IMG/VR virus record: IMGVR_UViG_3300020147_000009
Coordinates: 530 to 64,529 of that record
Reading direction: 5' to 3' (one strand)
Length of the DNA: 64,000 nucleotides
From: a virus
The position numbers and the translations under genes are program-made. How positions within the stretch are numbered: the stretch's first letter is position 1; each line of letters starts with the position of its first letter. A model generated the notes under the pieces. That model made no database searches. It was given only the letters and a program-made list of their open reading frames with translations, and was not told where the DNA came from. Of this stretch, positions 25,589 through 47,359 are shown in pieces.

Positions 25589-26710
25589 TCAGTCGTTCTT
25601 TTTGAAGTTTTGGTGTGAAAATTCAGTTCTATCAACTAATTTTACACTAGTTTCATAGAATGATGCTACGTAACCTTCGTGAGCACCATCGACACCAAGT
25701 ACAGAATTTTTATTGAGGTCATTGATGATACTTATTTTAAGATAATTAAGGTTATTTATTATCGTCAAAAAGTTCTCGACATGTTCCTGTGGCATTGCTT
25801 CAATTAATTTTTCTTTTTCAGCTTGATATCTGCGTTTTGTTGATTTCATCTTTCTGTTTCTTTTGATGTCATCATAATACTCATGGACAAATCTTATAAA
25901 ATCAACGTAATTACCAGATGGATAATAGCCTTTCCTTATACAATTGTTATAATATCTCTTAAATAAGAGTTTGGCTTTTTCTGTATTATCAACAGCTTCT
26001 ATGAATATGTAAGACTCTTCCAGAAGCTTGAATATATTAACGTGAATATTTCTAAATACATCATTATCTAAAGTTGACGTAACTTCGTCAAAATTATATG
26101 TTGCATCAATACACCACAGGTCACCAAAGTTTTTGAATTGTTCAGAAATTGGTGCACCAAACTCAGCTTTAAGTTTCTTCAAACTAGGTCCTGAATATTT
26201 GGTATGAAAAACTATTCCACATTGAGCATTAACGATATCATTACCTAGTTCACTATTAATAGGAACGAAATACTCAAGAGTATTAGTTTTAAAATAGTAT
26301 GAATCTAATCCTGTGATGATATCATCTTTTGTAAACATCAAGTCGCCTTGATAAATACCTTCTTTAATACCTAGCTGAGAACAAGTATTAAAGATAATCA
26401 TCATCTTATTAGCCAATTCAATATTGTCAATCATCTCATAAATACCATCAATTGACTTGTAAACCTCTGGTTCCTTATTGAATATAGACTTCTTGGCAAC
26501 AAAAAACGCACCATCTTCAGGGTCAATACCGATGAATACAGAAGGGGAGCCGTCATATTTGGTAGACATCTTAAGAACTTTGATGTTATTACCAGCCATC
26601 TTAGATAAGATTAAACTAATAATAGTCAGGGCTGTTACAGCTCCACTAACTCCTTCAAGAGCTAGTTCTTCTATATGTGGTAGGTGATTATTTATCATTT
26701 GACTATACAT
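25589..26710 (-). CDS. rnlA: RNA ligase 1 (T4 RnlA-like)
   Basis: Motif I KYDGS, C-terminal EGYVASFYE...VKLVD resembles T4 Rnl1 EGYVAVMKDGSHFKIK; 373 aa vs 374. Confidence 0.7.
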   Translation of the reverse strand: MYSQMINNHLPHIEELALEGVSGAVTALTIISLILSKMAGNNIKVLKMSTKYDGSPSVFIGIDPEDGAFFVAKKSIFNKEPEVYKSIDGIYEMIDNIELANKMMIIFNTCSQLGIKEGIYQGDLMFTKDDIITGLDSYYFKTNTLEYFVPINSELGNDIVNAQCGIVFHTKYSGPSLKKLKAEFGAPISEQFKNFGDLWCIDATYNFDEVTSTLDNDVFRNIHVNIFKLLEESYIFIEAVDNTEKAKLLFKRYYNNCIRKGYYPSGNYVDFIRFVHEYYDDIKRNRKMKSTKRRYQAEKEKLIEAMPQEHVENFLTIINNLNYLKISIINDLNKNSVLGVDGAHEGYVASFYETSVKLVDRTEFSHQNFKKND

Positions 26711-27765
26711 GTTCCATTAATAACGGTAGGCCATACTTTCGATCTTGCATTTCTAAAAGATAAAATTAATTTTAAGCCTTTTGTTTCAATTAATACATCA
26801 ACATTCTTGGCTTGACCTTTTGGATAATAAATCTTAACACTTTCTATTTCACATAATGACTTTACAGTTTCATTGTCTCTAAAATCAATAAATTTATGAG
26901 TTTTTTCATCAATTGAATTTATGTAGAAATAACCAAAACCAAAACCTGAACAAATAAAATTGAAAACTTTTTCTAGGTCAATCCTATCAGTGACGTCATC
27001 AAACTCTTTGTTTCTATCAGCTGGTCGACCCTTTTTATAATTTTTAAATACAGACGTAAATTCAGATTCGCCAATACCAAATAAATCAAGAATTTGTTTT
27101 CCATATAGGTTTTCAATGACACCAGTAACCATTTCAGTTTCTTTCAAGTACTGAGTAATTCCAGCATTGAAAGCTCTGGTATCCTTACCATATTTTAAAC
27201 TTAGGAAGAAAGTATCACCATCGGCTTCAATTGTAATATCAGCTATGGATTCTCCTTGATTGATGTCTTTACCCATAAGATAAATTCCACCATCGTCAGA
27301 AAATACCATTGGTCTTCTGCTGTTCTTTTCTGCTGTTGAATACACATCTATATTTTTCTTACCTTTCAGTATTTTTTCATAGACATATAAGACAACATCT
27401 CTATGTTTGTAATTATAATCTAAATGTAGAATTTTGGAAAATAATTGTAAGTCAGCGAGGACTTCAATTTCATAAATTTTTCCTCGATTGTTAGCTCCTC
27501 TTCCTGTTCTTCCTCCATCACCAAACTCTGGTGTATGTCGGAGGAAGAACGTCTTCTTCATATCTTTTCTATCAATAATTTCATTTATATCCGCAATTGC
27601 CCATGTAATTTTTGATTTATTTTTCTCTACATTTATAGAGATAGGAGTAGGATGCCAGTTAGACAAATAATTGAACATCTCAACGTAACCCTGAATATAC
27701 ATTTTCTCAATATTAGAATCTAAGATATCCTGAACACACGTAGGCACCAAGGAGAAACCAGCCAT
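26695..27765 (-). CDS. hypothetical protein (356 aa), possible PD-(D/E)xK-like nuclease
   Basis: ORF; weak ADITIEADGDTFFLSLKYGKD nuclease-like pattern only. Confidence 0.5.
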   Translation of the reverse strand: MAGFSLVPTCVQDILDSNIEKMYIQGYVEMFNYLSNWHPTPISINVEKNKSKITWAIADINEIIDRKDMKKTFFLRHTPEFGDGGRTGRGANNRGKIYEIEVLADLQLFSKILHLDYNYKHRDVVLYVYEKILKGKKNIDVYSTAEKNSRRPMVFSDDGGIYLMGKDINQGESIADITIEADGDTFFLSLKYGKDTRAFNAGITQYLKETEMVTGVIENLYGKQILDLFGIGESEFTSVFKNYKKGRPADRNKEFDDVTDRIDLEKVFNFICSGFGFGYFYINSIDEKTHKFIDFRDNETVKSLCEIESVKIYYPKGQAKNVDVLIETKGLKLILSFRNARSKVWPTVINGTCIVK

Positions 27766-27787
27766 AATTTATTTCCTTAAAGAAGTA

Positions 27788-29179
27788 CTACTGAAAGTTG
27801 AAGCCGTTGAAATTCGGCTGTCTATTTATAGATTTATCAAACAAAGGAGTGTCGTCATCTTCTTTTTTACCAGCATCAGAGATGTCCGATTGAGCGGATT
27901 CTTCCACATCGAATAACTTCATTCGCTTGAAGTCTACACCAACAACAAATCGCTTATAATAATTTGGGTCATTATATCGATTCTTTAATTGCTTAATCAT
28001 TATCTGATTAAGACTATCTAACTCTTCTGTTCTAATCAATGCCAAGTACAAATCCAGAGTCTGTGGAAGACCGATAGATTCTGATGTATTTGTCATATCA
28101 ATGTCAGAAGAATCAATACCTTCTCTATTGGCTTGAGTAGCCGTTAGAATTGGAATGTCAAACTCAACACAGAGAGAACGAATTTCTTCTGCAATAAATT
28201 TAACATAAGTATATGAATTGATTGAACTACCCATCTTGATTCTTTGTGAAGCACAGATGTTCAAGTAGTCAACAACCATAATATCTGGTACGAAGTCTTT
28301 CTTAAGTTTCAATTCACGGAGAAGAGCTCGGAAGTGACCAGCATGAGCAGAACCAGTTGGGTATTCCTTGATAATCAACTTACCCTTGGTTTTGTTCGAA
28401 AGTTTTACTACTCTGTTGTTGAAGTTATCGTAATCAAGATGTTTTAAGTCCTTGATATTAACATTCAACAAATTAGCATCAATTCTCTCTGCGATTCTTT
28501 CTTCAGCCATTTCCATGGTAACATACAGAACATTTTTACCTTGAAGAAGTGCTGCAGCTGCTGTATGACACATGAATAATGTCTTACCACCACCAGTTCC
28601 AGAAATAACACATGTTAGACTCTTCTTTGGAAGACCACCTTCTGTAATCTTATTCAGAAGGTCGATATCAAACGGAAGTCTTTCATCTACCCTGTTATAA
28701 AACTCAAAACGATTATCAGAATCAAGAACGTAATCGTGTCCAACTGCTGTGTCAAATGATACTGCCAAAGCATCAGATAGAATCTTTGGAATTGAATCCG
28801 GAGCTTTGTTAGCATCTTTTCCATCGATAATATGTATTGATTCATATATAGCATTAAACAGTGCTTTCTTTTTGCAAAAACTTTCAGTCTCTTCAACTAA
28901 CCATTCTTGATTAACACTACTAATGGAAGATATTTCTTTGATTAGGTCAATTGATTCTTTTAATTGGGTTTCAGATACGTCATCTCTATTAGAGATTTGG
29001 ATTGTTAAAATATCTGAATTTGGCTTGGAATTGTATTTTGTGTAGAAATTTGATATTTCTTGAAGGACTGTTGCTTCGTTTCCTTCGGTGAAGTATTCCT
29101 CTTTTAGGAATGGTAGAACTTTTCTTGCGTATTCTTCTGAATTTAATAAATTACTAAGTATCTCTAACTCTATCCTCAT
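27788..29179 (-). CDS. 41: replicative DNA helicase (T4 gp41, DnaB family)
   Basis: Walker A VISGTGGGKT and DnaB-like motifs. Confidence 0.9.
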   Translation of the reverse strand: MRIELEILSNLLNSEEYARKVLPFLKEEYFTEGNEATVLQEISNFYTKYNSKPNSDILTIQISNRDDVSETQLKESIDLIKEISSISSVNQEWLVEETESFCKKKALFNAIYESIHIIDGKDANKAPDSIPKILSDALAVSFDTAVGHDYVLDSDNRFEFYNRVDERLPFDIDLLNKITEGGLPKKSLTCVISGTGGGKTLFMCHTAAAALLQGKNVLYVTMEMAEERIAERIDANLLNVNIKDLKHLDYDNFNNRVVKLSNKTKGKLIIKEYPTGSAHAGHFRALLRELKLKKDFVPDIMVVDYLNICASQRIKMGSSINSYTYVKFIAEEIRSLCVEFDIPILTATQANREGIDSSDIDMTNTSESIGLPQTLDLYLALIRTEELDSLNQIMIKQLKNRYNDPNYYKRFVVGVDFKRMKLFDVEESAQSDISDAGKKEDDDTPLFDKSINRQPNFNGFNFQ

Positions 29180-29462
29180 CTAACCCTCCATAGTACACAA
29201 GCTCTTTTTGTTTAAGTTGTTCCTCAAGGTGAGAGATAATAGCATCACCAAGAGCTTGTTCATATTCTTCTTTATCTTCTGGTTTCAATTCACCTTTAAT
29301 AACATCATAGTTAAATTGTAGGTGAGCTGTACCGTTTTCTGGATTTTCCTTGAAATTGATTTGTCCAATCTTAATGATAATGTTATCCCAGCCTTTTAAT
29401 GAGACTGGGATAACCTGGACTAGACCATCATTTTCATCGACTAAGTCCGGATGTTGAATCAT
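29154..29462 (-). CDS. hypothetical protein (102 aa)
   Basis: ORF between helicase and uvsX. Confidence 0.45.
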   Translation of the reverse strand: MIQHPDLVDENDGLVQVIPVSLKGWDNIIIKIGQINFKENPENGTAHLQFNYDVIKGELKPEDKEEYEQALGDAIISHLEEQLKQKELVYYGGLDEDRVRDT

Positions 29463-30520
29463 TCAATTTCGTCCTCGGAATAAACATCTTCACTCACATC
29501 TGATGGATTTGAAATACCACCAAGAAGATATTTATTTTTCACATACTCAACGAATGATGGAGATTGAAGAACTTTACCTAAAAAGTCTTCAGTTTGAGTC
29601 GCATCAAATCGAACGTTTCCACTAACTTCTCCAGTATCTTTGTCAACCATTGCATACCAACCGTTCTTCGGCTTAATGACATGGCCTGATTCTAATGCAA
29701 TGTCAAGAAGTCCAGACCATTTGTTGATACCAGAATCATATAGAACAGTTAAAGGAATCTTTGATTTTTCCTTGACAAAACGAGATTTCTCGATGTTCAA
29801 AATGAAGTTGAATCCTGTTACAACGGTTCCTTCCTTCTCTTGCTGTCTACCAAAGATGATAATAATGTCAGCAGAATAGTAAATACCTGTACCACCGGAA
29901 ACAACCGCCTTACTGAACATTTCCATAGTTTGATAAGTGTGTGCAACAAATATCGCTGGAATATTACGTAGCTTGATTTGTGGAGTAACGATACGGAAGA
30001 AACTCTTCATTTCACGAGCTCTTGTCATATCAACTGTTGACTTACCTTCTAGTACGTCCGTAGCTTCTTTCTTAGAAGCCAAATTGCCAATAGAATCAAC
30101 AAATATAATTACCTTATCTTTATCTGAAATATCATTCAGCTTTTGGGGCATATCTTGTTTCATTTCTTCAATGTTTTGAATAGGGACATGAAGAACTCTT
30201 GAAACATCAATACCAAAATTCGACCAATATGTTGGAGGTGAACCAAACTCTGAATCATAAAACAAACAAATGCCGTCTTTGTGCTTTCTTAGGAATGCTG
30301 CAACCATAAGAATACCAGTATTAGACTTAAAGTGTTTTGATGGACCTGCTAAAACGATAACACCAGAACCTAGGCCTGAATCGAATTCTCCACCCAGTGC
30401 TACGTTAAGAATAGGAATTTCTGTGTCTATCAAATCTCGCTTATGATAAACCTTAGAATCCGCTAATTGTTCAGACTTAAGACCAATTTTCGAAAGTCTT
30501 TCTAAAAGATTATTGCTCAT
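29459..30520 (-). CDS. uvsX: UvsX recombinase (RecA family)
   Basis: Collinear with T4 UvsX: VLAGPSKHFKSN, CLFYDSEFG, IFVDSIGNLASKKE, VKPKNGWYA. Confidence 0.9.
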   Translation of the reverse strand: MSNNLLERLSKIGLKSEQLADSKVYHKRDLIDTEIPILNVALGGEFDSGLGSGVIVLAGPSKHFKSNTGILMVAAFLRKHKDGICLFYDSEFGSPPTYWSNFGIDVSRVLHVPIQNIEEMKQDMPQKLNDISDKDKVIIFVDSIGNLASKKEATDVLEGKSTVDMTRAREMKSFFRIVTPQIKLRNIPAIFVAHTYQTMEMFSKAVVSGGTGIYYSADIIIIFGRQQEKEGTVVTGFNFILNIEKSRFVKEKSKIPLTVLYDSGINKWSGLLDIALESGHVIKPKNGWYAMVDKDTGEVSGNVRFDATQTEDFLGKVLQSPSFVEYVKNKYLLGGISNPSDVSEDVYSEDEIE

Positions 30521-30547
30521 ATTTCCTCTTATTTTTAAGATAGTTAA

Positions 30548-30578
30548 TTTTATAAATTGTGAATATTTAAAGTAAAAT
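30548..30578 (-). promoter_or_regulatory. early promoter (ATTTTACTTTAAA-N-TATAAA)
   Basis: Minus strand attttactttaaatattcacaatttaTAAAAT, then AGGAA SD and ATG at 30520. Confidence 0.5.
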
Positions 30579-30579
30579 A

Positions 30580-30930
30580 TTAATGGACAGATTTTCCTTC
30601 AGCCATATTTTCATTTCTTAGGTCAATCACTTCTTTTGTTTCCATGTTATCGTCGGTAAATACAACTACTTTTGGGGATATATCAGGAAATAGAGTTGAA
30701 GCATAGATGAAGGTTATCTTAGCACATTGCTTAGGGTCTTCATGGGACAGGTCGGTGACCAATGTGACGTTATAATCTGAATTATCAAATGAAGGTAAAA
30801 ATATGAAGAGGAGAGCTCGGTAATAAGAACCTCCATCTTCGGTTTCCATATGTTCTAGGTGAATCTGTACTTGCTCTGGTTCAAAAACTCCCCAATTAGG
30901 GATAAAATCTACTTTCTTTATATCAGTCAT
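30580..30930 (-). CDS. hypothetical protein (116 aa)
   Basis: ORF. Confidence 0.5.
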   Translation of the reverse strand: MTDIKKVDFIPNWGVFEPEQVQIHLEHMETEDGGSYYRALLFIFLPSFDNSDYNVTLVTDLSHEDPKQCAKITFIYASTLFPDISPKVVVFTDDNMETKEVIDLRNENMAEGKSVH

Positions 30931-31414
30931 TAATATCTACTACATCCCAGTTCAAAATAACGGATTGGACTTCATTAAAGAATCCATCCAAATTATCAAT
31001 TACTTCGATTTCTGGTCTAATAATAGATAGCTGTTTAATTACATCAAACTTTCTCTTATATCCAGGATGAACACCGACCACCATTGGCTTATCTGACATG
31101 GCAATCTTACCAAGTTCAAATAAAGTAATAGGACATAGAGTTTCTTCCGGAAACCAGAATGAAACGATGTCAGCAATCTCCAGATTGCAATGTTCCCATT
31201 CAATTTGAATATCACTTTGTTTTGGGTCCATGACATCAAAATCATATCTTCTTGGATTGATGAAAATAGCATCCAGATGGGAGCATCTTTCAATCATTAA
31301 TTCCTGCCAGTCAGGGCAGTTTGAAATTCCTCCAGCCATGAACAAAGAAGGCCTTGTTCTGGATAGTGTTAAAGGAAAATCATTTGGTGCTCGTACAACA
31401 ATTAAATTTGACAT
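30923..31414 (-). CDS. nucleoside 2-deoxyribosyltransferase-like protein (second copy)
   Basis: SLFMAGGI and ITLFELGKIAMSDKPMVV match the NDT pattern (G-T-x-F-E-x-G...KPvv). Confidence 0.55.
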   Translation of the reverse strand: MSNLIVVRAPNDFPLTLSRTRPSLFMAGGISNCPDWQELMIERCSHLDAIFINPRRYDFDVMDPKQSDIQIEWEHCNLEIADIVSFWFPEETLCPITLFELGKIAMSDKPMVVGVHPGYKRKFDVIKQLSIIRPEIEVIDNLDGFFNEVQSVILNWDVVDIND

Positions 31415-33924: not shown

Positions 33925-33950
33925 AGAAACTCCAACATTGATTAATATAA

Positions 33951-33982
33951 ATTATAAGCAATGTTGGAATTTAATGTAAAAT
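33951..33982 (-). promoter_or_regulatory. early promoter upstream of DNA polymerase
   Basis: Minus strand ATTTTACATTAAA...TTATAAT then GGAG and ATG at 33924. Confidence 0.5.
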
Positions 33983-34360: not shown

Positions 34361-34395
34361 AATTATCCTTAAAAGTCGGCACAGTTACCTATTTC

Positions 34396-34403
34396 TATTT
34401 ATA
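34396..34403 (-). promoter_or_regulatory. late promoter box TATAAATA
   Basis: Minus-strand TATAAATA about 35 nt upstream of ATG 34360. Confidence 0.5.
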
Positions 34404-34421
34404 CCGATTTCAAGGATAATT

Positions 34422-35186
34422 TTATATTTCTACAATCAAGTCTGGATTAAATTCTTTAAGGTTTTCTCGACCATATCCCTTTGGATTGCAGATAACACGA
34501 GTATCTCCAACCATGTAGTCAAAATTACAATGAGTATGTCCATGAATCCAAAGACCTTCCCAACCCATATATTGAGACATCTCAGTACTGAAGTAAGGAG
34601 TGATTAGATTATTCTTGAATTTTTCATGGACAGACCTAATACCCGGACAGAAATGAGTAACAACAACTCTCTTTTGACCTTCAGTCTCTTTTAATGCCCA
34701 TTTAAGAAACTGTTCAAATTCCCTGAATAACTTCTTCGTGTCTTCGATAGTAAAAGCTTCTTCTTGAAATTCATAATAACCAGTAAACTTACCATCCCAT
34801 TTTCTTATACCATGACGTATGTTATAGTCAGTAATTCCACGTTCGCATAATGTATCAATAAGAACTTGTGGCTGTGTAGCTGAAAACAAACTGAAGTCTG
34901 TCCACATGGTGCCACAGATAAAATGCACGTCGTCGATGACCTTTATGTCATTATCAATGTAACCTATATCCTGTAGGTTCTTTCGATGAACCATGAAGTT
35001 TTGTTTATAGTACTCATGATTTCCTGGTACAGTTATAACCGGAACTTCGATGTTGCTAACGAATTGTTCATATAATGAAGGTCTAGATGAGATGTCACCA
35101 GCAAGAACTACAACATCCTCGCCTTTATTATCATAATAGTGGAACTGCCCCTCCAGATGGAGGTCTGACATTATTCTAAGTTTCAT
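34422..35186 (-). CDS. calcineurin-like metallophosphoesterase
   Basis: DLH / GD / GNHE metallophosphatase motifs. Confidence 0.7.
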   Translation of the reverse strand: MKLRIMSDLHLEGQFHYYDNKGEDVVVLAGDISSRPSLYEQFVSNIEVPVITVPGNHEYYKQNFMVHRKNLQDIGYIDNDIKVIDDVHFICGTMWTDFSLFSATQPQVLIDTLCERGITDYNIRHGIRKWDGKFTGYYEFQEEAFTIEDTKKLFREFEQFLKWALKETEGQKRVVVTHFCPGIRSVHEKFKNNLITPYFSTEMSQYMGWEGLWIHGHTHCNFDYMVGDTRVICNPKGYGRENLKEFNPDLIVEI

Positions 35187-35583
35187 TCAATTGTTCCATT
35201 AATAATCGTTTAACTAAAATATTTGGTTGTCTATATCTGTCAGTTTCCATAAATCCAATAGAAATACCAGCCTCAACTACAGCTCCAGACCTGCACATAC
35301 CAGCATGGCAATGAACTATAACATTTGAATGATTATCCAAAGCTGATTTAAGGATATGGACAATCTCTTTTGCTTGTTCTCTGGTGAAGTTTCCTTCATA
35401 ACCTTCTTCATCCTGGTCCCAAAACTTGAATTGATGTATTTCCTTGAATTTGTACTTAGGAAAAGGGAATCCTGACATATTTGGGTCAGTGATTTGAATT
35501 AGAACTGAGTTTGGGCCTGGGTCGTAATGAAACGCTCTTTTGATATTATCATACGAAACGTTTTCAATAAATGGTCTCATCAT
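35176..35583 (-). CDS. Cys-based protein-tyrosine/dual-specificity phosphatase-like protein
   Basis: VHCHAGMCRSG = HCx5R(S) P-loop; ORF track start TTG at 35595, ATG at 35581-35583 preferred. Confidence 0.65.
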   Translation of the reverse strand: MMRPFIENVSYDNIKRAFHYDPGPNSVLIQITDPNMSGFPFPKYKFKEIHQFKFWDQDEEGYEGNFTREQAKEIVHILKSALDNHSNVIVHCHAGMCRSGAVVEAGISIGFMETDRYRQPNILVKRLLMEQLNET

Positions 35584-35711
35584 ATTATTCTTCAACTTCT
35601 TCAGCTATAATATCTTCATCATAGCTATAGTCAAATAATCCTTCTTTCATTTCAACCAATATCTTATCAAAACACTCATCACATTGACAAGTGTCTGAGC
35701 CATCACAAAAC

Positions 35712-35909
35712 TCAGATTGGTCCGTATTGGATGAAATTTGCTCTATTGTCATCATATATTTTTACACATACAACACATTTCAGCCAAACCCTCAAAGATT
35801 TAGCATTGTTGTATGCTATTGTTCCTACCCTTTCAGCTTCGTTAAAATCATCGGTTTCCAATAGCAAAATTGGTTCTTTTCCTGCTGCTTCATAGAAAAC
35901 TTTAATCAT
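35712..35909 (-). CDS. hypothetical protein (65 aa)
   Basis: ORF. Confidence 0.35.
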   Translation of the reverse strand: MIKVFYEAAGKEPILLLETDDFNEAERVGTIAYNNAKSLRVWLKCVVCVKIYDDNRANFIQYGPI

Positions 35910-35945
35910 GATTTATTATAACAAATTTCATAATAAAGATATACA

Positions 35946-36101
35946 TTATTTTTCAGTTTGTTCTTCTGTTGTACCTTTATTTTCAACTTCTGTATCATTT
36001 TTGTCTTTTTTACCGAATATCGCGTCGAAATTATCTGTATAGGCTTTGCTCGGTACTCTTGAGATGATTGAATCTCCGGTTATATCATTCTTTGTTGCCA
36101 T
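35946..36101 (-). CDS. small acidic hypothetical protein (51 aa; ORF track 35946..36134)
   Basis: Internal ATG at 36099-36101 preceded by GGAGAAA SD; longer N-terminus would overlap the terminator hairpin. Confidence 0.35.
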   Translation of the reverse strand: MATKNDITGDSIISRVPSKAYTDNFDAIFGKKDKNDTEVENKGTTEEQTEK

Positions 36102-36110
36102 ATTTTCTCC

Positions 36111-36142
36111 AAAATAAAATGCAACCGGAATCATCCGGTTGC
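36111..36142 (-). terminator. rho-independent terminator (9-bp GC-rich stem GCAACCGGA/TCCGGTTGC, then AUUUUAUUUU on the minus strand)
   Basis: Perfect inverted repeat 36121..36142 with 4-nt loop; plus-strand A-rich run 36111..36120 = U-tract for leftward transcription; downstream of SPFH gene stop. Confidence 0.55.
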
Positions 36143-36172
36143 ATTGTTGTCAGACTTAAATGTAACTACTTT

Positions 36173-36180
36173 TATTTATA
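36173..36180 (-). promoter_or_regulatory. late promoter box TATAAATA located upstream of the terminator hairpin
   Basis: Plus tatttata at 36173..36180. Confidence 0.35.
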
Positions 36181-36182
36181 GG

Positions 36183-37571
36183 TTATTCCTTTGAGGAAGC
36201 CTTCTTAATAGCTTTAGTAGTTTCCTTCTCTGTTTCTTGAGCTACTACACCAAGCTTGTTAAGAAGGGCAGCTCCCTGTTCGGTATTTGAAAGACCTTCA
36301 AGCATCGAACCAAGTGCTACACCACCTTTGCTGGTCAGAACTTCAGACAAACTTTGAACACCGCCAGTTACCTCACCGGAGTTAACGATAATCTTGAGGT
36401 CAGCAGCTTCCAATGCCTTAGCATTTTCGATACCAATCTTCTCGTTAGCTTCAACTTGACGGACAGTAACCAGGTAGTTTTGGTAACCAACATTTTCGCC
36501 GATTTCTTTAGCCAATGTAATCTGAGTTTCAACAGGAGCCATAAGGATAGCAGTTTCTGCAGCACCTTTTGCTTCACCTTCAACTCGAATACCTTCAGCT
36601 GCTCGACGTTGAGCTTCCAAGTTACCTTCAGCAATAATAACTGTCTGTTCCTTGGTACCTTCAGCTTTAATAACTTGGGTACGCTTTTGTTCTTCAGCTT
36701 GAACGATTTTAACTTCTTTTTCGATGTCGGCCTTCTTAACTTCTTGAACCTTAACAACTTCCATCGACTTTTCAGTAGTTACCTTTTCTTGGGACTTGAT
36801 TTCTTGAAGGGCTTGTTCCTTCGCGATACCAACTTCCTTTTCTTTCTCGGCTGTTCGAATACCAACGGCTTGTTGAGCTTCTTGAGCACGAATATCAACA
36901 GCTTGTTTTGCTGCAAGTTCTGCAGTTTGGGCTTGCTTAGTGTTTTCAGCTACTTCAATACGTGATTGCATCTCAATCAAGGACTTCTTCTTTTCCATGA
37001 TGTTTTGAATCACCTTAGAGTCTTTGCTGTCGCGAATATCCATAAGTTCGATATTCTTAACTGTAGTAACACCCCAATGAGTAAGTTGTTCAGCCACTTC
37101 CTTGGTAAAAGCTTCACCAAACTCAGCACGACCTTGCATGATTTCTTCAATGTCTTTCGAAGCTAGAATAGTACGAGCAGCACCTTGTAGAATAGAGCGA
37201 AGCTGGTTATTTAGCTCTTGAACATTCGAAACTCTCTGAGCAGCAATGTTAGAGTCTGCAATACGGAAGAAAGCTTCCATATCAAGAACGAACGGCAATC
37301 TACCCTTGTCATAAGCATCATAACCTTCAAGACGCAGACTGAAGTTAGAAACTGGCAACTTAATAACTTGAATACCAATTACTGGAATCCAGCTTGGCCA
37401 TTCATAATATGTGTTACCATCAGAGAGGTCCTTACCATACGATGTAGTCTTCTTTCGAGACTGCACAATATGAACCTCATTTGTGTTCACTACACGGCGC
37501 AGTGACACTACCCAGACAGCGAAGCAAACTGCAATCGCCGCCAGTACAAGACTTCCAATAAGCATAATCAT
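36183..37571 (-). CDS. SPFH/band-7 (flotillin-like) membrane protein with long EA-rich coiled-coil
   Basis: N-terminal TM (LIGSLVLAAIAVCFAVWVV), SPFH-like core, extended A/E/K/Q repeats typical of flotillins. Confidence 0.7.
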   Translation of the reverse strand: MIMLIGSLVLAAIAVCFAVWVVSLRRVVNTNEVHIVQSRKKTTSYGKDLSDGNTYYEWPSWIPVIGIQVIKLPVSNFSLRLEGYDAYDKGRLPFVLDMEAFFRIADSNIAAQRVSNVQELNNQLRSILQGAARTILASKDIEEIMQGRAEFGEAFTKEVAEQLTHWGVTTVKNIELMDIRDSKDSKVIQNIMEKKKSLIEMQSRIEVAENTKQAQTAELAAKQAVDIRAQEAQQAVGIRTAEKEKEVGIAKEQALQEIKSQEKVTTEKSMEVVKVQEVKKADIEKEVKIVQAEEQKRTQVIKAEGTKEQTVIIAEGNLEAQRRAAEGIRVEGEAKGAAETAILMAPVETQITLAKEIGENVGYQNYLVTVRQVEANEKIGIENAKALEAADLKIIVNSGEVTGGVQSLSEVLTSKGGVALGSMLEGLSNTEQGAALLNKLGVVAQETEKETTKAIKKASSKE

Positions 37572-37603
37572 TGTGTTTTATTTCTCCATAAAATTAAAAT
37601 TAA

Positions 37604-37903
37604 CTACTTTTCTTCTACTACATATTTTCCGGTTTCAATATCAAATCTTTCAACTTTTCCAGTTTCAATATTGAATCGGTCAAATCTTATCCCTAGCATA
37701 TAGGTAACTTTTGCTGGTATTGGACCAGCAAAGATACCGTTAAATTCAGGAATAAAATCCTTTTGACACTTATCACACCACAAGTGTCCTTTGAATTCAG
37801 ACCATTCACATTCATCGTTACCACAACTGCATGGACTGACTTCAAATTCTTTTGGTTTCTGTATATAGAACCAAGTTCTCTTTTCCAACTCAGGCATATT
37901 CAT
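37604..37903 (-). CDS. small zinc-binding protein with tandem 10-aa C-terminal repeat
   Basis: CSCGNDEC...CDKC; RFNIETGKVE / RFDIETGKYV encoded by ~30-bp tandem DNA repeat at 37620..37690. Confidence 0.5.
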   Translation of the reverse strand: MNMPELEKRTWFYIQKPKEFEVSPCSCGNDECEWSEFKGHLWCDKCQKDFIPEFNGIFAGPIPAKVTYMLGIRFDRFNIETGKVERFDIETGKYVVEEK

Positions 37904-39050
37904 CTGCTGCAGTTGTATGGTTGAATTCAGAGTAAACAGTTCTTAATGTATATTCACTCAAATAATTCTTTTCCCAGAAACCTTTATAATCTGGCTCCTT
38001 ACCATCGTAAAGTTTCATTGCAAGCCCAAAGAAAGAATAGCTTCTATATTTCTCAGCTGCATCCTTTCTTGTTGGTTCAGCTTTAATCAGTTCAAACATT
38101 TCTTCTGTTGCAGAAACTATTCCCTTCATTTCTTCAATGTATCGATTTTCAATAGCTTCAACTAAAGAAAGGTCATAATTTGATTCAACAATAGTTGACT
38201 TGATATCATCTAAGGTCTCATCAACGCACATGCGAGCTACGTCTCGTTCACGTAAGTCTGTATTGATATGGTGGCGAAGGTTGTACCAATTACACTTTGT
38301 CTTTACTCGAGTTCCATCCTCGAACGCGATGACGAAACCTTCCATACCACACATATTCTCAATTTGAGCTTCTATGTCTTCATAATTAGTCATTCCATCA
38401 AACTTCTTAACAACAGAAACGTTTGGGTTATCAATAGATAATAGAGAAGATGGCCATAGATTTTTATGTTCAACATATAAACCATTATACGAGTCTCTAA
38501 CGGCAATTAAAGTCCATGTTGGTTTTTGACCATAATCGACAACAATTTTCCAGTCAGGATGGGTGAATTCCCAAATTGGGGATAATCCAACATCAAGAGC
38601 AATTTTGGTAAGAGCTCTTACACATTCTGGAGCCATCTCATTTGCTAGCTTAGCTACATCAGAATAGAAAGATTTCTTAGTCTTGAAATATACTTCTCCA
38701 CCTATACAAACCGCAGTAATCATCGAGCCGTCTCGTTTTTCCAGAACTTCGAATGGTTGGTCCCAGTTCAAGTTGTGTACTTGAGTAGATTCTTTTTCAT
38801 TGATGTTGAAAAACTTAGGAAAAGCCATAGAGATTAGCTGACCAGTGTCCTTACGGAATACATGGCCGCGGCATTCCAAACCCATTGGTTTAGCCCAAAG
38901 TTCTGGAGATGCAATCATATAACATGGAATAACAACATCAATTCCACCAACAGTTTCTTCCTTGAATTGAACTGTCTTGTCGTCTCGTAAATGGTCAAAA
39001 TCACTTAGATGCATAATATTTTTCCTATTCCATCCTATATCAAGTGTCAT
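37890..39050 (-). CDS. RNA ligase-like nucleotidyltransferase (second KxDG ligase)
   Basis: Motif I LEKRDGSM, motif IV/V EGFVIAFEDGTRVKTK; 386 aa. Confidence 0.6.
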   Translation of the reverse strand: MTLDIGWNRKNIMHLSDFDHLRDDKTVQFKEETVGGIDVVIPCYMIASPELWAKPMGLECRGHVFRKDTGQLISMAFPKFFNINEKESTQVHNLNWDQPFEVLEKRDGSMITAVCIGGEVYFKTKKSFYSDVAKLANEMAPECVRALTKIALDVGLSPIWEFTHPDWKIVVDYGQKPTWTLIAVRDSYNGLYVEHKNLWPSSLLSIDNPNVSVVKKFDGMTNYEDIEAQIENMCGMEGFVIAFEDGTRVKTKCNWYNLRHHINTDLRERDVARMCVDETLDDIKSTIVESNYDLSLVEAIENRYIEEMKGIVSATEEMFELIKAEPTRKDAAEKYRSYSFFGLAMKLYDGKEPDYKGFWEKNYLSEYTLRTVYSEFNHTTAADEYA

Positions 39051-39107
39051 GATAATCCTTTGATAAGATTATCTCTAAAAGATTCTACTTCCATATAAAC
39101 CAAAATG

Positions 39108-39467
39108 TCATATTACCATTCTGCATATATCGTCATCTGAAAGAATTTCATATTTTACAGGAGTATTGATTTGAGCCTTATCTTTAGCAGAAGATGTCCA
39201 GCAATTTGGTCTATTATGTTCAGATATACCTTTCTCCTGAAAGAAAGTATGGTCTTTAATATCGCCATCAAATAAAATCTTGATGACAACTGATTTACCA
39301 TGGCGAACATGTCTTGCAGCACCTTTAGATTTCTTAGACATTATACGAGTTGCCCACATATAAGCCGTTTTAAAATCTACCGCAGTAGTACCAGGAATAT
39401 AACCTGGCTTGAGGTCTGAAGCTAAAACACCTTTGTATAAAGTAATCATAGAAGAATTATATAACAA
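39108..39467 (-). CDS. hypothetical protein (119 aa)
   Basis: ORF. Confidence 0.45.
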   Translation of the reverse strand: MLYNSSMITLYKGVLASDLKPGYIPGTTAVDFKTAYMWATRIMSKKSKGAARHVRHGKSVVIKILFDGDIKDHTFFQEKGISEHNRPNCWTSSAKDKAQINTPVKYEILSDDDICRMVI

Positions 39468-39573
39468 TTTCGATATTTTGTATAATTATTTTTGTCAAAA
39501 ATAATTTGTACTTTAATTCTAAAAACTGTTATAATAAAACTCTGTTGGTAGCACGGAGTAGATATAGAGACTT

Positions 39574-39741
39574 CTACTTTACCATGTTACTGAGTTCAAT
39601 TGACATTATTTCATCAAGTAATTCAGACTTAGATTTATTACTTGGCTTGATGTTGTAATCAAGTTTAGCAATACCAAGTAATTCAGTCTTATTCAAAGTT
39701 GACAAATAACAAGCTAATTCATTAAGATAAGTAACAATCAT
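39574..39741 (-). CDS. small HeH/Rho_N-like protein (55 aa), not in ORF track
   Basis: Hand translation MIVTYLNELACYLSTLNKTELLGIAKLDYNIKPSNKSKSELLDEIMSIELSNMVK; strong AGGGGTGGGA SD; LxxLxKxELxxIAK...SKxELLxEI resembles Rho-N/SAP-type HeH motif. Confidence 0.35.
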   Translation of the reverse strand: MIVTYLNELACYLSTLNKTELLGIAKLDYNIKPSNKSKSELLDEIMSIELSNMVK

Positions 39742-39763
39742 GATATCCCACCCCTATTTTAGA

Positions 39764-40429
39764 TTATATTTTTACTACATTTTTCCAGTGACAAACGATT
39801 TCAGATTCACCACGACCAGTTAGATAACCAATAACATTAGATTTCTTCACTTTACCGGTTGTAACTACAGCGTTTCCACTAAATCTGTTTGCAAACCATG
39901 CTGCTTTACTCTTATCTGTAGTCCAACTAAAACCTTGCCAGTTGTTGTCACGAGTTCCACGATAAATAATGATTTCTTCCGGTAATTTGTTGAATTCTTC
40001 CAGTTCATGGTCGTTCATAAAGTTTTCATTGTCTGGCCGACTACAAAACAAAAGCTTTTCCCAGATATCATAATTCTGATATAGGTTTTCTGTATCAATA
40101 TAAACTTGAGATAAAACTCTCCAGTATTCTTTATCGGTAGGGATTAGACCTTGAGCCACAACTTCATAGAATCCATTTACACGATAAGCTCGTTCATAGA
40201 TGAATGGTATCAATTCATAATTTTCGGTTTTATAAGCCTCTTCAAGACGTTTCTTGGCTTGTTCATACCGATAATTACACATAGCGTTCAGATATTCTGA
40301 ATGTGGGACGCTATAAACAAGAGGATGTTGAATGACTTTCCAGGTTCCCATTGGAAACAAATATTCTTGTAAGTCTGGATGTAAGTCTTCGACTTTATTA
40401 AAAATTTCATCAGGATTGAAATTCATCAT
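39764..40429 (-). CDS. hypothetical protein (221 aa)
   Basis: ORF. Confidence 0.5.
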   Translation of the reverse strand: MMNFNPDEIFNKVEDLHPDLQEYLFPMGTWKVIQHPLVYSVPHSEYLNAMCNYRYEQAKKRLEEAYKTENYELIPFIYERAYRVNGFYEVVAQGLIPTDKEYWRVLSQVYIDTENLYQNYDIWEKLLFCSRPDNENFMNDHELEEFNKLPEEIIIYRGTRDNNWQGFSWTTDKSKAAWFANRFSGNAVVTTGKVKKSNVIGYLTGRGESEIVCHWKNVVKI

Positions 40430-40776
40430 TGTTTTGTCCTATACTTTCCAAAGGTGTCCCAATAAGGAAGGTTTCGGTCTACATCTTCCCATTTATCATC
40501 CGGATGACGGAACCTGTTATAAACTTGGATGGTTGCATTACCAATTAGCCATTTCATAATGAGTATAGCATGCTTTTGTGGTAACTCAATAAGAACAACA
40601 TCTTTGCTCTCGATGCTATATTCCAACGGGTCAAGTTCGTCTAACATTCCAATGACGTCCTCAAAACCATTATCATCTACGTTCTTCACCTCAAGAAAAA
40701 AGTCCTGTAACTTAAATTCTAGCACCGAAGTGCGAGACTTTAAAAGCCACAGGACTTTATGGAGATTCTTACTCAT
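40426..40776 (-). CDS. hypothetical protein (116 aa)
   Basis: ORF. Confidence 0.5.
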   Translation of the reverse strand: MSKNLHKVLWLLKSRTSVLEFKLQDFFLEVKNVDDNGFEDVIGMLDELDPLEYSIESKDVVLIELPQKHAILIMKWLIGNATIQVYNRFRHPDDKWEDVDRNLPYWDTFGKYRTKQ

Positions 40777-40808
40777 TATATAAATACCTCATCAATTACG
40801 ATAAGGTC

Positions 40809-40838
40809 ATTATATCAAAGAATTGAATTTATGTAAAC
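40809..40838 (-). promoter_or_regulatory. early promoter with exact T4-type GTTTAC -35 and TATAAT -10 (18-nt spacer)
   Basis: Minus strand GTTTACataaattcaattctttgaTATAAT upstream of ATG 40776. Confidence 0.55.
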
Positions 40839-40885
40839 ATATGCTTACTACTCTTCCTCAACAATATAGATTTTTGATTTATCCA

Positions 40886-42082
40886 TTAATCTTCACCACC
40901 TTTCAACAGGAACTTGTTAGAGATTGCCTTGAATGTAAAGTTGCTGTCATGCGACTTAAACACTAGACCTTCTCTTACTTCGTTGTTGATACTTGCTCCA
41001 TCAGCGAAAGATAGCATTTCTTCAATGTTGTTGATACTAATGTCACTAAGATTAGTTTCAAAGTAAACAACAGGAACCCAATAGATATCAACACCAAAAT
41101 CCACTCTTAATCTATTAATGATGTTATGTCTCTCATCGGGAGTCATATATTTTTGTTTTTCGATATCCCAAATATCGAAGACATAGAACTTATGTTCACT
41201 GAAACCTTCACGGTTGCCTTGGATTCCAGGTCCCATGAGTTCTCCTTGGATAGCCATAGGGTACCCATAATCATATAGAGCTTGAATCAAACCAGAATTC
41301 TTGGCAACATCTACATAAGTATTGCCTTCCTGGTCTAACTTAAGGTTCATGTTTCTTGAGCATACACCTACCTCAGTCTTACAATCGCTGTGGTCAAAAC
41401 CAAATTCATGGTTGTAGTATACAGTCATAGAAGAACCATCAAGCTTAAGGGTTACTTCATACTTTTCATCCTTATGCTTTTCGAAGATGTCTCGTACCAA
41501 GTTTTGGCAACGTTCTTGGTCAGTTTTACGGATAAAACTAGGGAAAGAACCCCTAACCTGACCTGCTAATTGACCAGGAACAGGCTTCTCATATTTCTGG
41601 ATACCTAAAGCTTCAGTTACATCTTGTCCTTCAGAAACATTTTGAATATTTCCATCAATATGGTCAATATAATATCCACCATTTTCTGAATATTTAACTG
41701 GCATAATCAAACCTTGTGAAACTTGACCACGTAGCTTGATTGTTCTGAGTCTGGCACCAGGAACTCCATTGTATTCCTTTGGAATTCCACCCTTAGACAA
41801 AAACGGCGCAACTGAGTCAGGTACCCAAGAATCAATTTCAAAGTAGACTACAAGGTCTCCAACATTGAAACCGTTGTCGATTGCCGTTACAACCCACCAT
41901 CCACCAATTCGAGCCTTTACAATCTTGTCAGCTCCTTCAATTGGTTGGATTTCTTCAATTACACGAATTGTTGCAAGCTTACGAAACTTTGGCTCAGGAC
42001 TAGGCAATCCATCGTCATATGGAATACCAAAATATTCACCTTCTACCGTACCACGTTCTTCATCTACTTTAATTTCCATCAT
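40886..42082 (-). CDS. RNA ligase-like nucleotidyltransferase fused to N-terminal tRNA-binding OB-fold (Trbp111/EMAPII-like) domain
   Basis: N-term IEGADKIVKARIGGWWVVTAIDNGFNVGDLVVYFEIDS resembles the Trbp111/EMAPII tRNA-binding OB-fold; motif I VTLKLDGSS; motif IV EGLVFK. Confidence 0.55.
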   Translation of the reverse strand: MMEIKVDEERGTVEGEYFGIPYDDGLPSPEPKFRKLATIRVIEEIQPIEGADKIVKARIGGWWVVTAIDNGFNVGDLVVYFEIDSWVPDSVAPFLSKGGIPKEYNGVPGARLRTIKLRGQVSQGLIMPVKYSENGGYYIDHIDGNIQNVSEGQDVTEALGIQKYEKPVPGQLAGQVRGSFPSFIRKTDQERCQNLVRDIFEKHKDEKYEVTLKLDGSSMTVYYNHEFGFDHSDCKTEVGVCSRNMNLKLDQEGNTYVDVAKNSGLIQALYDYGYPMAIQGELMGPGIQGNREGFSEHKFYVFDIWDIEKQKYMTPDERHNIINRLRVDFGVDIYWVPVVYFETNLSDISINNIEEMLSFADGASINNEVREGLVFKSHDSNFTFKAISNKFLLKGGED

Positions 42083-46026: not shown

Positions 46027-46093
46027 TTCACTTTATCCATAATTAAAAAGACAATTCTATTATAATGCAAATTAGATTTAAAGTACATATTTC

Positions 46094-47251: not shown

Positions 47252-47351
47252 TACTTTTTACCTTTATTTCAGTTGTTTCGTGATTTTCTTGAGACCACAG
47301 GCAGAATTTTGTTTCGTTTTAGAAAGTAGCTGCCCTAAAAACTCATAGAAG

Positions 47352-47359
47352 TATTTATA
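47352..47359 (-). promoter_or_regulatory. late promoter box TATAAATA upstream of MIPS-like gene
   Basis: Plus gtatttataa; about 100 nt upstream of ATG 47251. Confidence 0.4.

Follow-up and report, generated by a model that had tools for sequence, protein, structure and literature searches.

Four ligase-superfamily genes in a marine T4-like phage, including DUF6267, a predicted ligase-type nucleotidyltransferase

The overall results are probably best explained by four separate ligase-superfamily genes with different jobs in this phage, rather than by one RNA-repair module. The RNA-repair part is ordinary, consisting of the classical T4 Rnl1 and Pnkp pathway plus an Rnl5 enzyme; the new element of the phage is DUF6267, for which a ligase-type fold is predicted. 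A marine T4-like myovirus is the source of the window (the whole 64-kb stretch analysed), which covers its early/replication region, lies within the 124-kb metagenomic contig k141_670337 and encodes a DNA polymerase ~49% identical to cyanomyovirus polymerases.

All of the ORFs named in the original prediction are present on the minus strand where it had placed them (Table 1), with one correction: the HCx5R phosphatase ORF is real, but the end assigned to it, 35583, is an internal ATG of ORF 35176-35595. That prediction had proposed one expanded RNA-repair set containing several KxDG ligases. Several ligase-superfamily genes are indeed present, the Rnl1-type, Rnl5 and gp30-type by profile and DUF6267 by predicted fold, but the proposed set is scattered among replication genes and forms no single module. 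The KxDG motif is by itself weak proof, because 18 occurrences are spread over 16 minus-strand ORFs, those of the metallophosphoesterase (MPE) and of a 5-hmdU-kinase-like protein among them.

Table 1. Genes and domains considered in this analysis, with positions in window numbering
Feature	Position (nt)	Strand	Length or residues	Profile matches and motifs
HxGH (cytidylyltransferase-like) nucleotidyltransferase	23422..25542	-	706 aa	Pfam CTP_transf_like 2e-6
DUF6267, predicted new ligase-type nucleotidyltransferase	25589..26710	-	373 aa	K51 (KYDGS)
DUF6267 helical insert	25712-26065		aa 216-333
Protein X	26695..27765	-	356 aa	phrog_8438
Binuclear metallophosphoesterase (MPE)	34422..35186	-	254 aa	Pfam Metallophos; intact DxH/GD/GNH/GHxH
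Cys-phosphatase	35176..35595	-		HCx5R, C96; weak DSP/PTP Pfam matches
Rnl1-type ATP-dependent RNA ligase	37890..39050	-	386 aa	K105 (KRDGS); Pfam RNA_lig_T4_1 6.4e-20; phrog_562 5.7e-68
Rnl5-family nick-sealing RNA ligase	40886..42082	-	398 aa	K213 (KLDGSS), in the C-terminal nucleotidyltransferase domain; Pfam PHA02142 OB + RNA_ligase
Rnl5 N-terminal OB domain	41678-41986		about aa 33-135
Small Pnkp-phosphatase-like HAD	44926..45318	-	130 aa	D6xD8 (DxDGV), T30-G-R, D92-D-D; phrog_415 8.6e-10
Acb1 anti-CBASS 2H phosphodiesterase	50095..50622	-		H58-V-T, H132-V-T
gp30-type ATP-dependent DNA ligase	54558..55898	-	446 aa	K164 (KSDGMR); Pfam DNA_ligase_A_M + DNA_ligase_OB_2; phrog_114 9e-130
T4-type bifunctional Pnkp (same contig, window-equivalent)	~67220-68137		305 aa	AAA_33 + HAD_PNKP

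Predicted structure makes it most likely that the 25589-26710 protein has a ligase nucleotidyltransferase fold, as its KxDG motif had first suggested. Motifs I (K51-x-D53-G54), Ia (K73-K74), III (Q121-G122-D123), IIIa (H169/Y172), IV (E345-G346) and V (K357) keep the canonical order and do not vary within the family, and in both predicted fold and motif order the protein resembles the classic ATP-dependent ligases, i.e. Rnl2/REL1, Rnl5, Trl1-LIG and the Chlorella virus and T7 DNA ligases. DUF6267 is thus predicted to be a previously unrecognised ligase-type adenylyltransferase. Its conservation is extensive: of the 390 phage records in which DUF6267 is found, 376 are cyanophages and every one carries the label 'hypothetical', and the order pol-uvsX-gp41-...-X-DUF6267 is kept in L001, HTVC008M and MED4-213. 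The family is near-universal in marine T4-like phages, widespread yet unannotated.

The HxGH nucleotidyltransferase is the conserved partner of DUF6267, being always adjacent or fused; homologs adjoin DUF6267 in MED4-213 and HTVC008M, the two are fused in S-PM2, and phrog_455 is a fusion of DUF6267 with a cytidylyltransferase. In the present phage, the catalytic domain of the HxGH protein (about aa 13-200) is followed by a long K/E-rich tail, and among PDB structures the protein matches PPAT best (E 0.006). The gene for protein X overlaps the start of DUF6267 by 16 nt, so the two are probably translationally coupled. A Pfam search of protein X gave no match; in L001, HTVC008M and MED4-213 the same position is held by a gene of 350-480 aa, with almost no mutual sequence similarity. 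A coupled upstream gene that evolves fast is a further difference of DUF6267 from the classic ligases. DUF6267 may act jointly with the HxGH protein, and its most likely role would be to seal nicks in the replication or repair of marine T4-like phages.

In other respects DUF6267 departs from the classic ligases, and these departures favour a different reading, in which it is no polynucleotide ligase but, together with the HxGH protein and perhaps protein X, nucleotidylates a protein or small molecule, or is a structural pseudo-enzyme, the ligase-like fold reflecting distant ancestry or a modelling coincidence. Profile searches detected no sequence link from DUF6267 to any ligase; there is no OB or C-terminal accessory domain, with the helical insert of about 120 residues in place between motifs IIIa and IV; the obligate HxGH partner, from a class normally making NMP-phosphate-linked small molecules, is unlike anything found with a known ligase; and the phage already has three other ligases. 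We regard this reading as unlikely and prefer that of a ligase-type nucleotidyltransferase.

HMM classification assigns the 37890-39050 protein to the Rnl1 type and the 40886-42082 protein to Rnl5. The former is consistent with the proposal that one ligase is of the type used by T4 for tRNA repair: its residues 36-367 align to the T4 Rnl1 structure 2c5u (E 1e-25), and its catalytic residues K105 (motif I), E161, E237-G238 and K250/K252 align with K99, E159, E227-G228 and K240/K242 of T4 Rnl1. It is nevertheless a divergent Rnl1, scoring 133 bits with TIGR02308, under the 242-bit equivalog cutoff, and having a weak Pfam match to T4_Rnl1_C. The statement that no P-loop polynucleotide kinase is visible is true within the window, where the sole Walker A is that of the gp41 helicase and no further RNA-repair genes or Walker-A kinases were found. 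A profile search for a kinase domain, however, located a full-length Pnkp on the same contig, 3.2-4.1 kb past the right edge of the window; its residues 3-300 match 1ltq over the full length (E 6.7e-39), and it has the P-loop GISGSGKST together with DIDGT, SGR and DDR motifs. The absence of a kinase is a window-edge artefact.

The gene content is that of the classical T4 heal-and-seal pathway, to which activity is assigned by homology. Pnkp would turn 2',3'-cyclic-phosphate/5'-OH breaks in tRNA anticodon loops into 3'-OH/5'-phosphate ends, which Rnl1 would then seal via lysyl-AMP and AppRNA. The likeness to T4 Rnl1 (gp63) and Pnkp (pseT) extends to full-length homologs of both on one contig and to retention of all the Rnl1 catalytic residues, and T4 too has Acb1 and, besides Rnl1, another RNA ligase and the gp30 ligase. 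The differences are the divergence of Rnl1 (about 25-30% identity), the marine, cyanomyovirus-like lineage of this phage, and the spacing of the two genes, which are about 28 kb apart here but near-neighbours in T4. Work on P-SSM2 and P-SSM4, Prochlorococcus myophages of the cyanomyovirus group, had identified neither rnlA nor pseT (PMC1079782).

The 40886-42082 protein has the hallmarks of an orthodox Rnl5. Residues 33-394 match NgrRnl (5cot, E 1.3e-73), TIGR02306 scores 194.8 bits, above its 151-bit cutoff, and the equivalents of NgrRnl R4, D53, K121, R149, K170, E227, E312 and K326 are invariant across alignment A3. With Naegleria gruberi NgrRnl and Deinococcus radiodurans DraRnl it shares an identical architecture of N-terminal OB and C-terminal nucleotidyltransferase domains and all active-site residues, including the OB contacts to the ATP gamma-phosphate; it differs in its 32-aa N-terminal extension and in being phage-encoded. 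Phage-encoded Rnl5 enzymes are already known from Aeromonas, Caulobacter, Mycobacterium and Sinorhizobium phages (PMC4408790), and the family is annotated 'RNA ligase' in 341 phage records. The OB domain had been taken as tRNA-binding and hence as an argument for a tRNA substrate. Its fold does resemble Trbp111/EMAPII (Pfam tRNA_bind gives 13.2 bits, under the 27-bit threshold), but OB plus ligase is the defining Rnl5 architecture, and the fold is no argument for tRNA: the OB domains of NgrRnl and DraRnl serve to promote adenylylation of the lysine, and both enzymes seal nicks in duplexes where the 3'-OH strand is RNA (PMC7261155, PMC4408790), NgrRnl being feeble on single-stranded RNA (PMC4408790). 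In contrast to the tRNA-binding OB domains of Trbp111, CsaA, EMAPII and MetRS-C, the demonstrated role of the Rnl5 domain is thus not tRNA binding (PMC7261155). By analogy, the phage enzyme would use its OB domain to position the ATP gamma-phosphate for adenylylation of the lysine and would seal duplex nicks having an RNA 3'-OH strand.

The metallophosphoesterase and HCx5R superfamily assignments are borne out by Pfam and motifs. The MPE is occasionally found near ligases, as in Cr30, L003 and Munch. It is possible that the MPE, perhaps with the Cys-phosphatase, is an accessory RNA 3'-end healer for Rnl1 and/or Rnl5 besides Pnkp, with a 2',3'-cyclic phosphodiesterase/phosphatase activity such as that of the bacterial Pnkp MPE module, although we think this improbable. 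For both the Clostridium thermocellum Pnkp module and lambda phosphatase, hydrolysis of 2',3'-cyclic phosphates has been described (PMC2190708, PMC3675462), and MPE-ligase fusion or adjacency in related phages is reminiscent of bacterial Pnkp: Caulobacter phage Cr30 gp033 (33.6% identical) is separated from an RNA ligase by one small gene, with Rnl1 and an AAA_33 kinase in the same region, the L003 homolog is two genes from Rnl1, and L004 has an MPE-Rnl1 fusion. The L004 domain, however, belongs to a different MPE subfamily, and among six sampled phages with the present family two lack a nearby ligase, in another the ligase is a DNA ligase, and in one the MPE sits within a tRNA array. In the window the MPE gene lies 2.7 kb downstream of Rnl1, but a strong terminator-like hairpin sets it apart from the Rnl1 unit; MPE genes number at least three in this phage, and 3' healing is already supplied by Pnkp. 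The MPE is only loosely linked to ligases. The Cys-phosphatase gene overlaps that of the MPE by 11 nt, and its only phage homolog, in S. elongatus phage BUCT-ZZ01, is 3.4 kb from the Rnl5 of that phage.

Two further proteins proposed as RNA end healers are better placed elsewhere. The 2H superfamily assignment of the 50095-50622 protein is real, but it is Acb1 (Pfam 8.3e-41, 139.5 bits vs a 27-bit cutoff), and a role as an RNA cyclic phosphodiesterase was rejected; it resembles T4 Acb1 (gene 57B) over the full-length domain and in its two HxT motifs, with no notable difference. The PHROG label 'RNA ligase' for this family is, we presume, a legacy 2H/LigT-type name. T4 57B/Acb1 is an anti-CBASS cyclic-oligonucleotide phosphodiesterase (PMC9117128). 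The small HAD protein, for which a Pfam search gave no match, is 26% identical to the C-domain of the phage's own Pnkp and 52% identical to the product of an L001 gene lying between Inos-1-P synthase and Ploopntkinase3, which places it in a DNA-modification cluster; its neighbours in the window are the 5-hmdU-kinase-like gene and an FkbM methyltransferase. It is therefore assigned to the adjacent DNA hypermodification/inositol-phosphate cluster and not to RNA healing.

That the phage has no kinase, and that 2H, MPE, Cys-phosphatase and HAD proteins heal tRNA ends in a split Trl1-like manner for three tRNA-directed ligases, is now very improbable: the real superfamily assignments of all four phosphoesterases, the kinase-free window, the OB fold of Rnl5 and the distant Pnkp-phosphatase likeness of the HAD accord with it, but it is largely refuted by the Pnkp gene, and the identity of Acb1, the conserved context of the HAD, the nick-sealing character of Rnl5 enzymes and the lack of a demonstrated RNA link for DUF6267 also oppose it, as does the 5'-phosphate needed by a classic ligase, which none of these phosphoesterases could supply. 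The healing-plus-sealing logic of fungal/plant Trl1 and bacterial Pnkp-Hen1 is shared overall, but here there is neither an RNA-devoted 2H CPD domain nor a Trl1-type kinase, and healing falls to the T4-type Pnkp.

Since the phage also has a gp30-type ligase, DUF6267 is not needed as its only DNA ligase. Cyanomyoviruses, by comparison, have been described as being without an identifiable gp30 ligase (PMC2984593, PMC1079782), and among Synechococcus phage records 297 match DUF6267 but fewer than 63 the gp30 ligase. DUF6267 would be a predicted new type of ligase in phages thought to be without a DNA ligase of their own.

The genes considered here were originally predicted to form a kinase-less tRNA repair system, in which three RNA ligases would be served by end-healing enzymes split over several genes in the manner of Trl1. 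Our results are consistent with RNA-repair capacity, with the presence of several ligases and with a Trbp111-like OB fold in one of them, but the phage does have a kinase, neither the 2H protein nor, probably, the HAD protein is a healer, and a tRNA substrate cannot be read from the OB fold. All of the open reading frames concerned are present on the (-) strand where the prediction placed them, each with a KxDG motif where one was claimed. KxDG occurs 18 times in 16 (-) strand ORFs, among them the metallophosphoesterase (MPE) and a 5-hmdU-kinase-like protein; alone it is weak evidence, and each candidate was therefore classified on its own. The window, which spans 43685-107684 of the 124,132-bp contig ena:ERZ27257321:k141_670337, has a GC content of ~35% and is transcribed leftward throughout. 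Because megablast of its 25-45 kb region against 50,697 phage genomes gave no match, relatives were sought by protein searches.

Locations of the features discussed (window positions unless another record is named; L013 and L014 are the flanks of the window on the same contig)
Feature	Location	Strand	Length
Thymidylate-synthase-family, Thy1-like, nucleoside 2-deoxyribosyltransferase-like and UDG-superfamily genes	9315-10049, 15509-16327, 30923-31414, 42079-42471	-	
ORF downstream of the HxGH protein	20100-23420	-	1,106 aa
HxGH nucleotidyltransferase	23422-25542	-	706 aa
DUF6267 protein	25589-26710	-	
Protein X	26695-27765	-	356 aa
MPE	34422-35186	-	
Cys-phosphatase (PTP)	35176-35595	-	
Terminator-like hairpin	36145-36118	-	12-bp stem
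SPFH/Band-7 protein	36183-37571	-	462 aa
Rnl1	37890-39050	-	386 aa
Rnl5	40886-42082	-	398 aa
Apparent DNA base-hypermodification cluster	43896-48419	-	
Small HAD protein	44926-45318	-	130 aa
Acb1 (2H protein)	50095-50622	-	
gp30-type DNA ligase	54558-55898	-	
Rv2179c-like exoribonuclease domain protein	59679-60230	-	
NAD+ salvage-type genes	L014 3703-5286, 8888-9469; window 63337-63780		
Pnkp	L014 5644-6561		305 aa
Further metallophosphoesterases	L013 11416-12183; L014 8252-8782		
Metallophos-Rnl1 fusion, viral contig	L004 9161-10945		594 aa
Caulobacter phage Cr30 repair set	L012 5992-12433		
MPE homolog, Brevundimonas phage Gurke	L020 5001-5765		

Rnl1 matches Pfam RNA_lig_T4_1 (6e-20, 72.4 bits against a 28.3-bit cutoff) and phrog_562 (6e-68), and its residues 36-367 align by phmmer to the T4 Rnl1 structure 2c5u (E 1e-25), with K105, E161, E237-G238 and K250/K252 opposite the T4 essential residues, i.e. 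the motif I lysine, E159, E227/G228 and K240/K242. The C-terminal domain of T4 Rnl1 is said to confer tRNA specificity; in our protein this domain scores under the T4_Rnl1_C cutoff (E 0.0013, 19.4 against 27 bits), the alignment to T4 Rnl1 nonetheless reaching residue 367. The protein also falls below the NCBIfam equivalog TIGR02308 (133 against 242 bits), and a scan of IMG/VR with it returned distant relatives only. On these sequence grounds it is a divergent member of the Rnl1 family.

The premise that no P-loop polynucleotide kinase is visible holds inside the window, where the gp41 helicase alone has a Walker A motif, but not on the contig. The profile search of neighbouring genes that the original prediction had proposed reveals an AAA_33 + HAD_PNKP protein, Pnkp, lying 3.2-4.1 kb beyond the right window edge, which aligns full-length to T4 Pnkp (1ltq, E 6.7e-39); its P-loop is intact and it carries the DxDGT/SGR/DDR motifs. 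Rnl1 and Pnkp constitute a classical T4-type pair, in which Rnl1 is predicted to seal 3'-OH/5'-phosphate breaks in tRNA anticodon loops; with such a pair in the phage, there is no need to postulate a Trl1-like division of healing among several genes. A caution follows, in that absences read from a 64-kb window may be edge artefacts. Genes of NAD+ salvage type (NAMPT/NAPRTase, a NadR-kinase-like AAA_28 protein and a NUDIX hydrolase) lie near Pnkp.

The ligase and phosphoesterase genes are a set of independent genes rather than a single module. The ligase genes are dispersed among those for replication and nucleotide metabolism, including RNR, thymidylate synthase, RNase H, gp41, UvsX and DNA polymerase, and the strongest terminator-like hairpin of the region, with a T-run, lies 3' of the SPFH/Band-7 gene and divides the Rnl1 unit from the PTP-MPE pair, that gene itself standing between the two. 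In a scan for consensus promoters and terminators, counts were not above those of shuffles. A tRNA scan of the window found no tRNA genes, and RtcB, a CCA-adding enzyme and Hen1 were not found among its larger ORFs. The window also encodes a protein with an Rv2179c-like 3'-5' exoribonuclease domain (Pfam 7e-14).

Among the proposed healers, MPE has a suggestive link to RNA ligases. MPE is intact, without an informative sequence match in the PDB, and is 33.6% identical to gp033 of Caulobacter phage Cr30, whose gene is separated by one small gene from that of an Rnl2-type ligase; the same region also encodes an Rnl1 coupled to an AAA_33 kinase. In one viral contig an MPE homolog is two genes from Rnl1, and another contig has Rnl1 fused to a different MPE. 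Four further phages with an MPE homolog, however, have no RNA ligase nearby (two without any ligase, one with a DNA ligase, one with a tRNA array), such that the link between MPE and RNA ligases appears inconsistent across the sampled neighbourhoods. The Cys-phosphatase gene overlaps that of MPE by 11 nt, and its product shows generic PTP similarity only, including in the PDB, with a single phage homolog. Two more metallophosphoesterases are encoded in the flanks of the window.

The small HAD protein has D6-I-D8-G-V, T30-G-R and D92-D-D motifs and is distantly related to Pnkp phosphatases (phrog_415, 8.6e-10; pairwise E 9e-5 to the C-domain of the phage's own Pnkp), with no match in Pfam, NCBIfam or the PDB. 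Its gene lies here between a 5-hmdU-DNA-kinase-like gene and a pair encoding an FkbM methyltransferase and inositol-1-phosphate synthase (MIPS); a homolog of 52% identity in another phage lies between inositol-1-phosphate synthase and a P-loop nucleotide kinase, beside Tet/JBP and amino-acid:DNA transferase genes. Given this conserved MIPS/kinase context, the protein probably belongs to a DNA-modification cluster. The idea that the 2H protein heals RNA ends is untenable: the only 2H protein, with H58-V-T and H132-V-T motifs, is a Pfam Acb1 member (8e-41, 139.5 bits against a 27-bit cutoff), i.e. a T4 57B-type phosphodiesterase of the kind that destroys CBASS cyclic-oligonucleotide signals (PMC9117128).

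The apparent DNA base-hypermodification cluster encodes the 5-hmdU DNA-kinase-like protein, the small HAD, the FkbM methyltransferase, the myo-inositol-1-phosphate-synthase-like enzyme and a phrog_17781 protein. A related metagenomic phage contig (L001) has the gene set Tet/JBP - ADDT - MIPS - HAD - P-loop nucleotide kinase, and thymidylate-synthase-family, Thy1-like, nucleoside 2-deoxyribosyltransferase-like and UDG-superfamily genes are present elsewhere in the window. It is unusual to find an inositol-phosphate synthase in a setting of thymidine hypermodification, and this may reflect a new modification.

The IMG/VR scan with Rnl1 brought to light the Metallophos-Rnl1 fusion, encoded in a 167-kb contig where an HNH/NUMOD4 endonuclease and a BrxL-like Lon protease are its neighbours on either side. 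This fusion resembles a heal-and-seal enzyme in one polypeptide that lacks a kinase. In Cr30 the set is compact and comprises MPE gp033, the Rnl2-type ligase gp031, Rnl1 gp022 and an overlapping stand-alone AAA_33 kinase, gp021; annotated merely as 'ATPase', gp021 is probably a Pnk kinase, with MPE in place of the HAD phosphatase. In Brevundimonas phage Gurke the MPE homolog lies amid a large phage tRNA gene array.

The second RNA ligase aligns end to end with Naegleria NgrRnl (5cot, E 1.3e-73), comprises a Pfam PHA02142 OB domain (aa 36-129) and an RNA_ligase domain (aa 207-386) with no C-terminal appendage, and passes TIGR02306 (RNA_lig_DRB0094; 194.8 against 151.15 bits). In a 28-sequence alignment (A3), its residues R34, D84, K163, R191, K213, E281, E371 and K385 are invariant; these are the counterparts of R4/D53/K121 in the NgrRnl OB domain, which hold the ATP gamma-phosphate, and of R149/K170/E227/E312/K326 in the NTase domain (residue roles from PMC7261155). 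The protein is thus, as judged from alignment and profile, an unambiguous Rnl5 enzyme, and the family-level HMM classification suggested earlier places the two RNA ligases in the Rnl1 type (by RNA_lig_T4_1) and in Rnl5 (by TIGR02306, above cutoff). Phage homologs of Rnl5 have been noted (PMC4408790), and 341 phage records already annotate Rnl5 as an RNA ligase.

An N-terminal tRNA-binding domain of Trbp111/EMAPII type had been taken to argue that tRNA is the substrate of Rnl5. Its residues 33-135 do have a Trbp111-type OB fold, but they miss the Pfam tRNA_bind threshold (PF01588; 13.2 against 27 bits, E 0.097, 20 residues covered), and a PDB profile search with the domain gave 1mkh at E 0.95. 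In NgrRnl and DraRnl the OB domain promotes lysine adenylylation, and no tRNA binding by the NgrRnl domain is reported (PMC7261155). Since the OB domain is the defining N-module of every Rnl5, with a role in adenylylation, its fold is no proof of a tRNA substrate. NgrRnl and DraRnl seal nicks in duplexes whose 3'-OH strand is RNA, NgrRnl being feeble on single-stranded RNA (PMC4408790), and by analogy we infer that the phage Rnl5 would seal nicks of the same type.

The third proposed RNA ligase is of a different kind. It belongs to Pfam DUF6267 (phrog_455), has no ligase match in Pfam and no match of any kind in NCBIfam, and in a phmmer search of the PDB gives noise alone, with no solved relative detectable by sequence. 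The family has 5,420 database matches, chiefly from marine metagenomes, and is present in essentially all marine cyanomyoviruses; the 390 phage records with a member (297 Synechococcus, 59 'Cyanophage' and 20 Prochlorococcus, plus pelagimyophage HTVC008M and Methylophilales phage Melnitz) all annotate it as hypothetical. We found no paper on DUF6267, nor anything relevant on Kyanoviridae ligases or AlphaFold models of cyanophage RNA ligases.

The predicted structure of DUF6267 has a nucleotidyltransferase fold, and its fold matches are T4 Rnl2 (7.6), a trypanosome editing ligase (7.5), Trl1 (7.4), T4 Rnl1 (6.6) and several DNA ligases (~6). Matches over more than 150 residues are all ligases, the short non-ligase matches covering just a helical insert (residues 216-333), and a BFVD search returned cyanophage family members and weak RNA-ligase matches only. 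Among 39 family sequences, motif I (K51-x-D53-G54) retains K51 in 38 and D53 and G54 in all; motif Ia (K73-K74), motif III (Q121-G122-D123, cf. 'QGE' in Rnl5), motif IIIa (H169/Y172), motif IV (E345-G346) and motif V (K357) are present in 39/39. The invariant residues stand in canonical ligase order, and the motifs are also found in two cultured phages, HTVC008M and MED4-213. Comparison with the Rnl5 family by hhalign was non-significant (probability 0.5%), and remained so with the insert and OB domain trimmed (E 0.025, probability 1.9%), the path of the latter alignment pairing motifs I, III and IV of DUF6267 with those of Rnl5; a 39-sequence profile against the PDB gave no ligase, only K/E-rich helical noise. 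As there is no significant sequence homology to ligases, the assignment is one of fold and motifs only, on which, from the modelled structure, we consider it likely that DUF6267 is a ligase-fold enzyme.

The gene context of DUF6267 is conserved in related phages: the order pol - uvsX - gp41 helicase - ... - X - DUF6267 is also found in a 148-kb metagenomic T4-like contig, HTVC008M and MED4-213. The gene for protein X precedes and overlaps the start of DUF6267 by 16 nt, and is probably translationally coupled to it. A gene encoding 350-480 aa occupies this position in four phage lineages almost without mutual sequence similarity (no Pfam match in the four phages, near-zero pairwise similarity); all four have a 'D-[IVF]...[IL]SLK' segment that is PD-(D/E)xK-like by eye only. 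DUF6267 is followed by the protein with an N-terminal HxGH (cytidylyltransferase-like) nucleotidyltransferase domain, which adjoins it in MED4-213, is two genes off in HTVC008M, and has its HxGH domain fused to DUF6267 in phrog_455 and an S-PM2 protein. This partner has a K/E-rich C-terminal extension of ~450 aa, and the ORF directly downstream of it matches no Pfam family at E up to 0.001. That the HxGH domain is an NMNAT tying DUF6267 to NAD+, an idea arising from the NAMPT and NUDIX genes on the contig, stays speculation, because its sole PDB similarity is weak and to PPAT.

Reviews describe cyanomyoviruses as without an identifiable gp30 DNA ligase (PMC2984593, PMC1079782), one of them leaving possible both 'distant homologues not yet identified' and use of the host ligase (PMC2984593). 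Consistent with this, a gp30-type query matches fewer than 63 Synechococcus phage records, versus 297 for DUF6267; the present phage is unusual in having both DUF6267 and a gp30-type ligase. Most likely, we predict, DUF6267 is a polynucleotide ligase of a new architectural type, associated with an HxGH nucleotidyltransferase and shared by marine T4-like phages otherwise without a ligase. It is possible, though doubtful, that DUF6267 and its HxGH partner, perhaps with protein X, form a new structural ligase class and provide the nick sealing (of Okazaki fragments or in repair) whose enzyme is 'missing' from these phages, i.e. cyanomyoviruses, pelagimyophages and relatives. In that case the partner might provide or restore an unusual nucleotide cofactor, or might pre-adenylylate the 5' end.

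The overall results reveal an ordinary RNA-repair gene set. Rnl1, Pnkp, a second nick-sealing RNA ligase, a gp30 ligase and Acb1 are essentially T4's own set, and the enterobacterial-T4 kit of Rnl1 + Pnkp, second nick-sealing RNA ligase and Acb1 has been carried over into a marine lineage related to cyanomyoviruses. What could matter is DUF6267, which combines a predicted ligase fold and invariant catalytic residues with a location within the replication gene block. For ~20 years, marine T4-like phages have been presumed to depend on host ligase; if DUF6267 were their missing ligase, some of the ocean's most abundant phages would encode their own, with a new ligase architecture comprising a helical insert and an HxGH nucleotidyltransferase partner.
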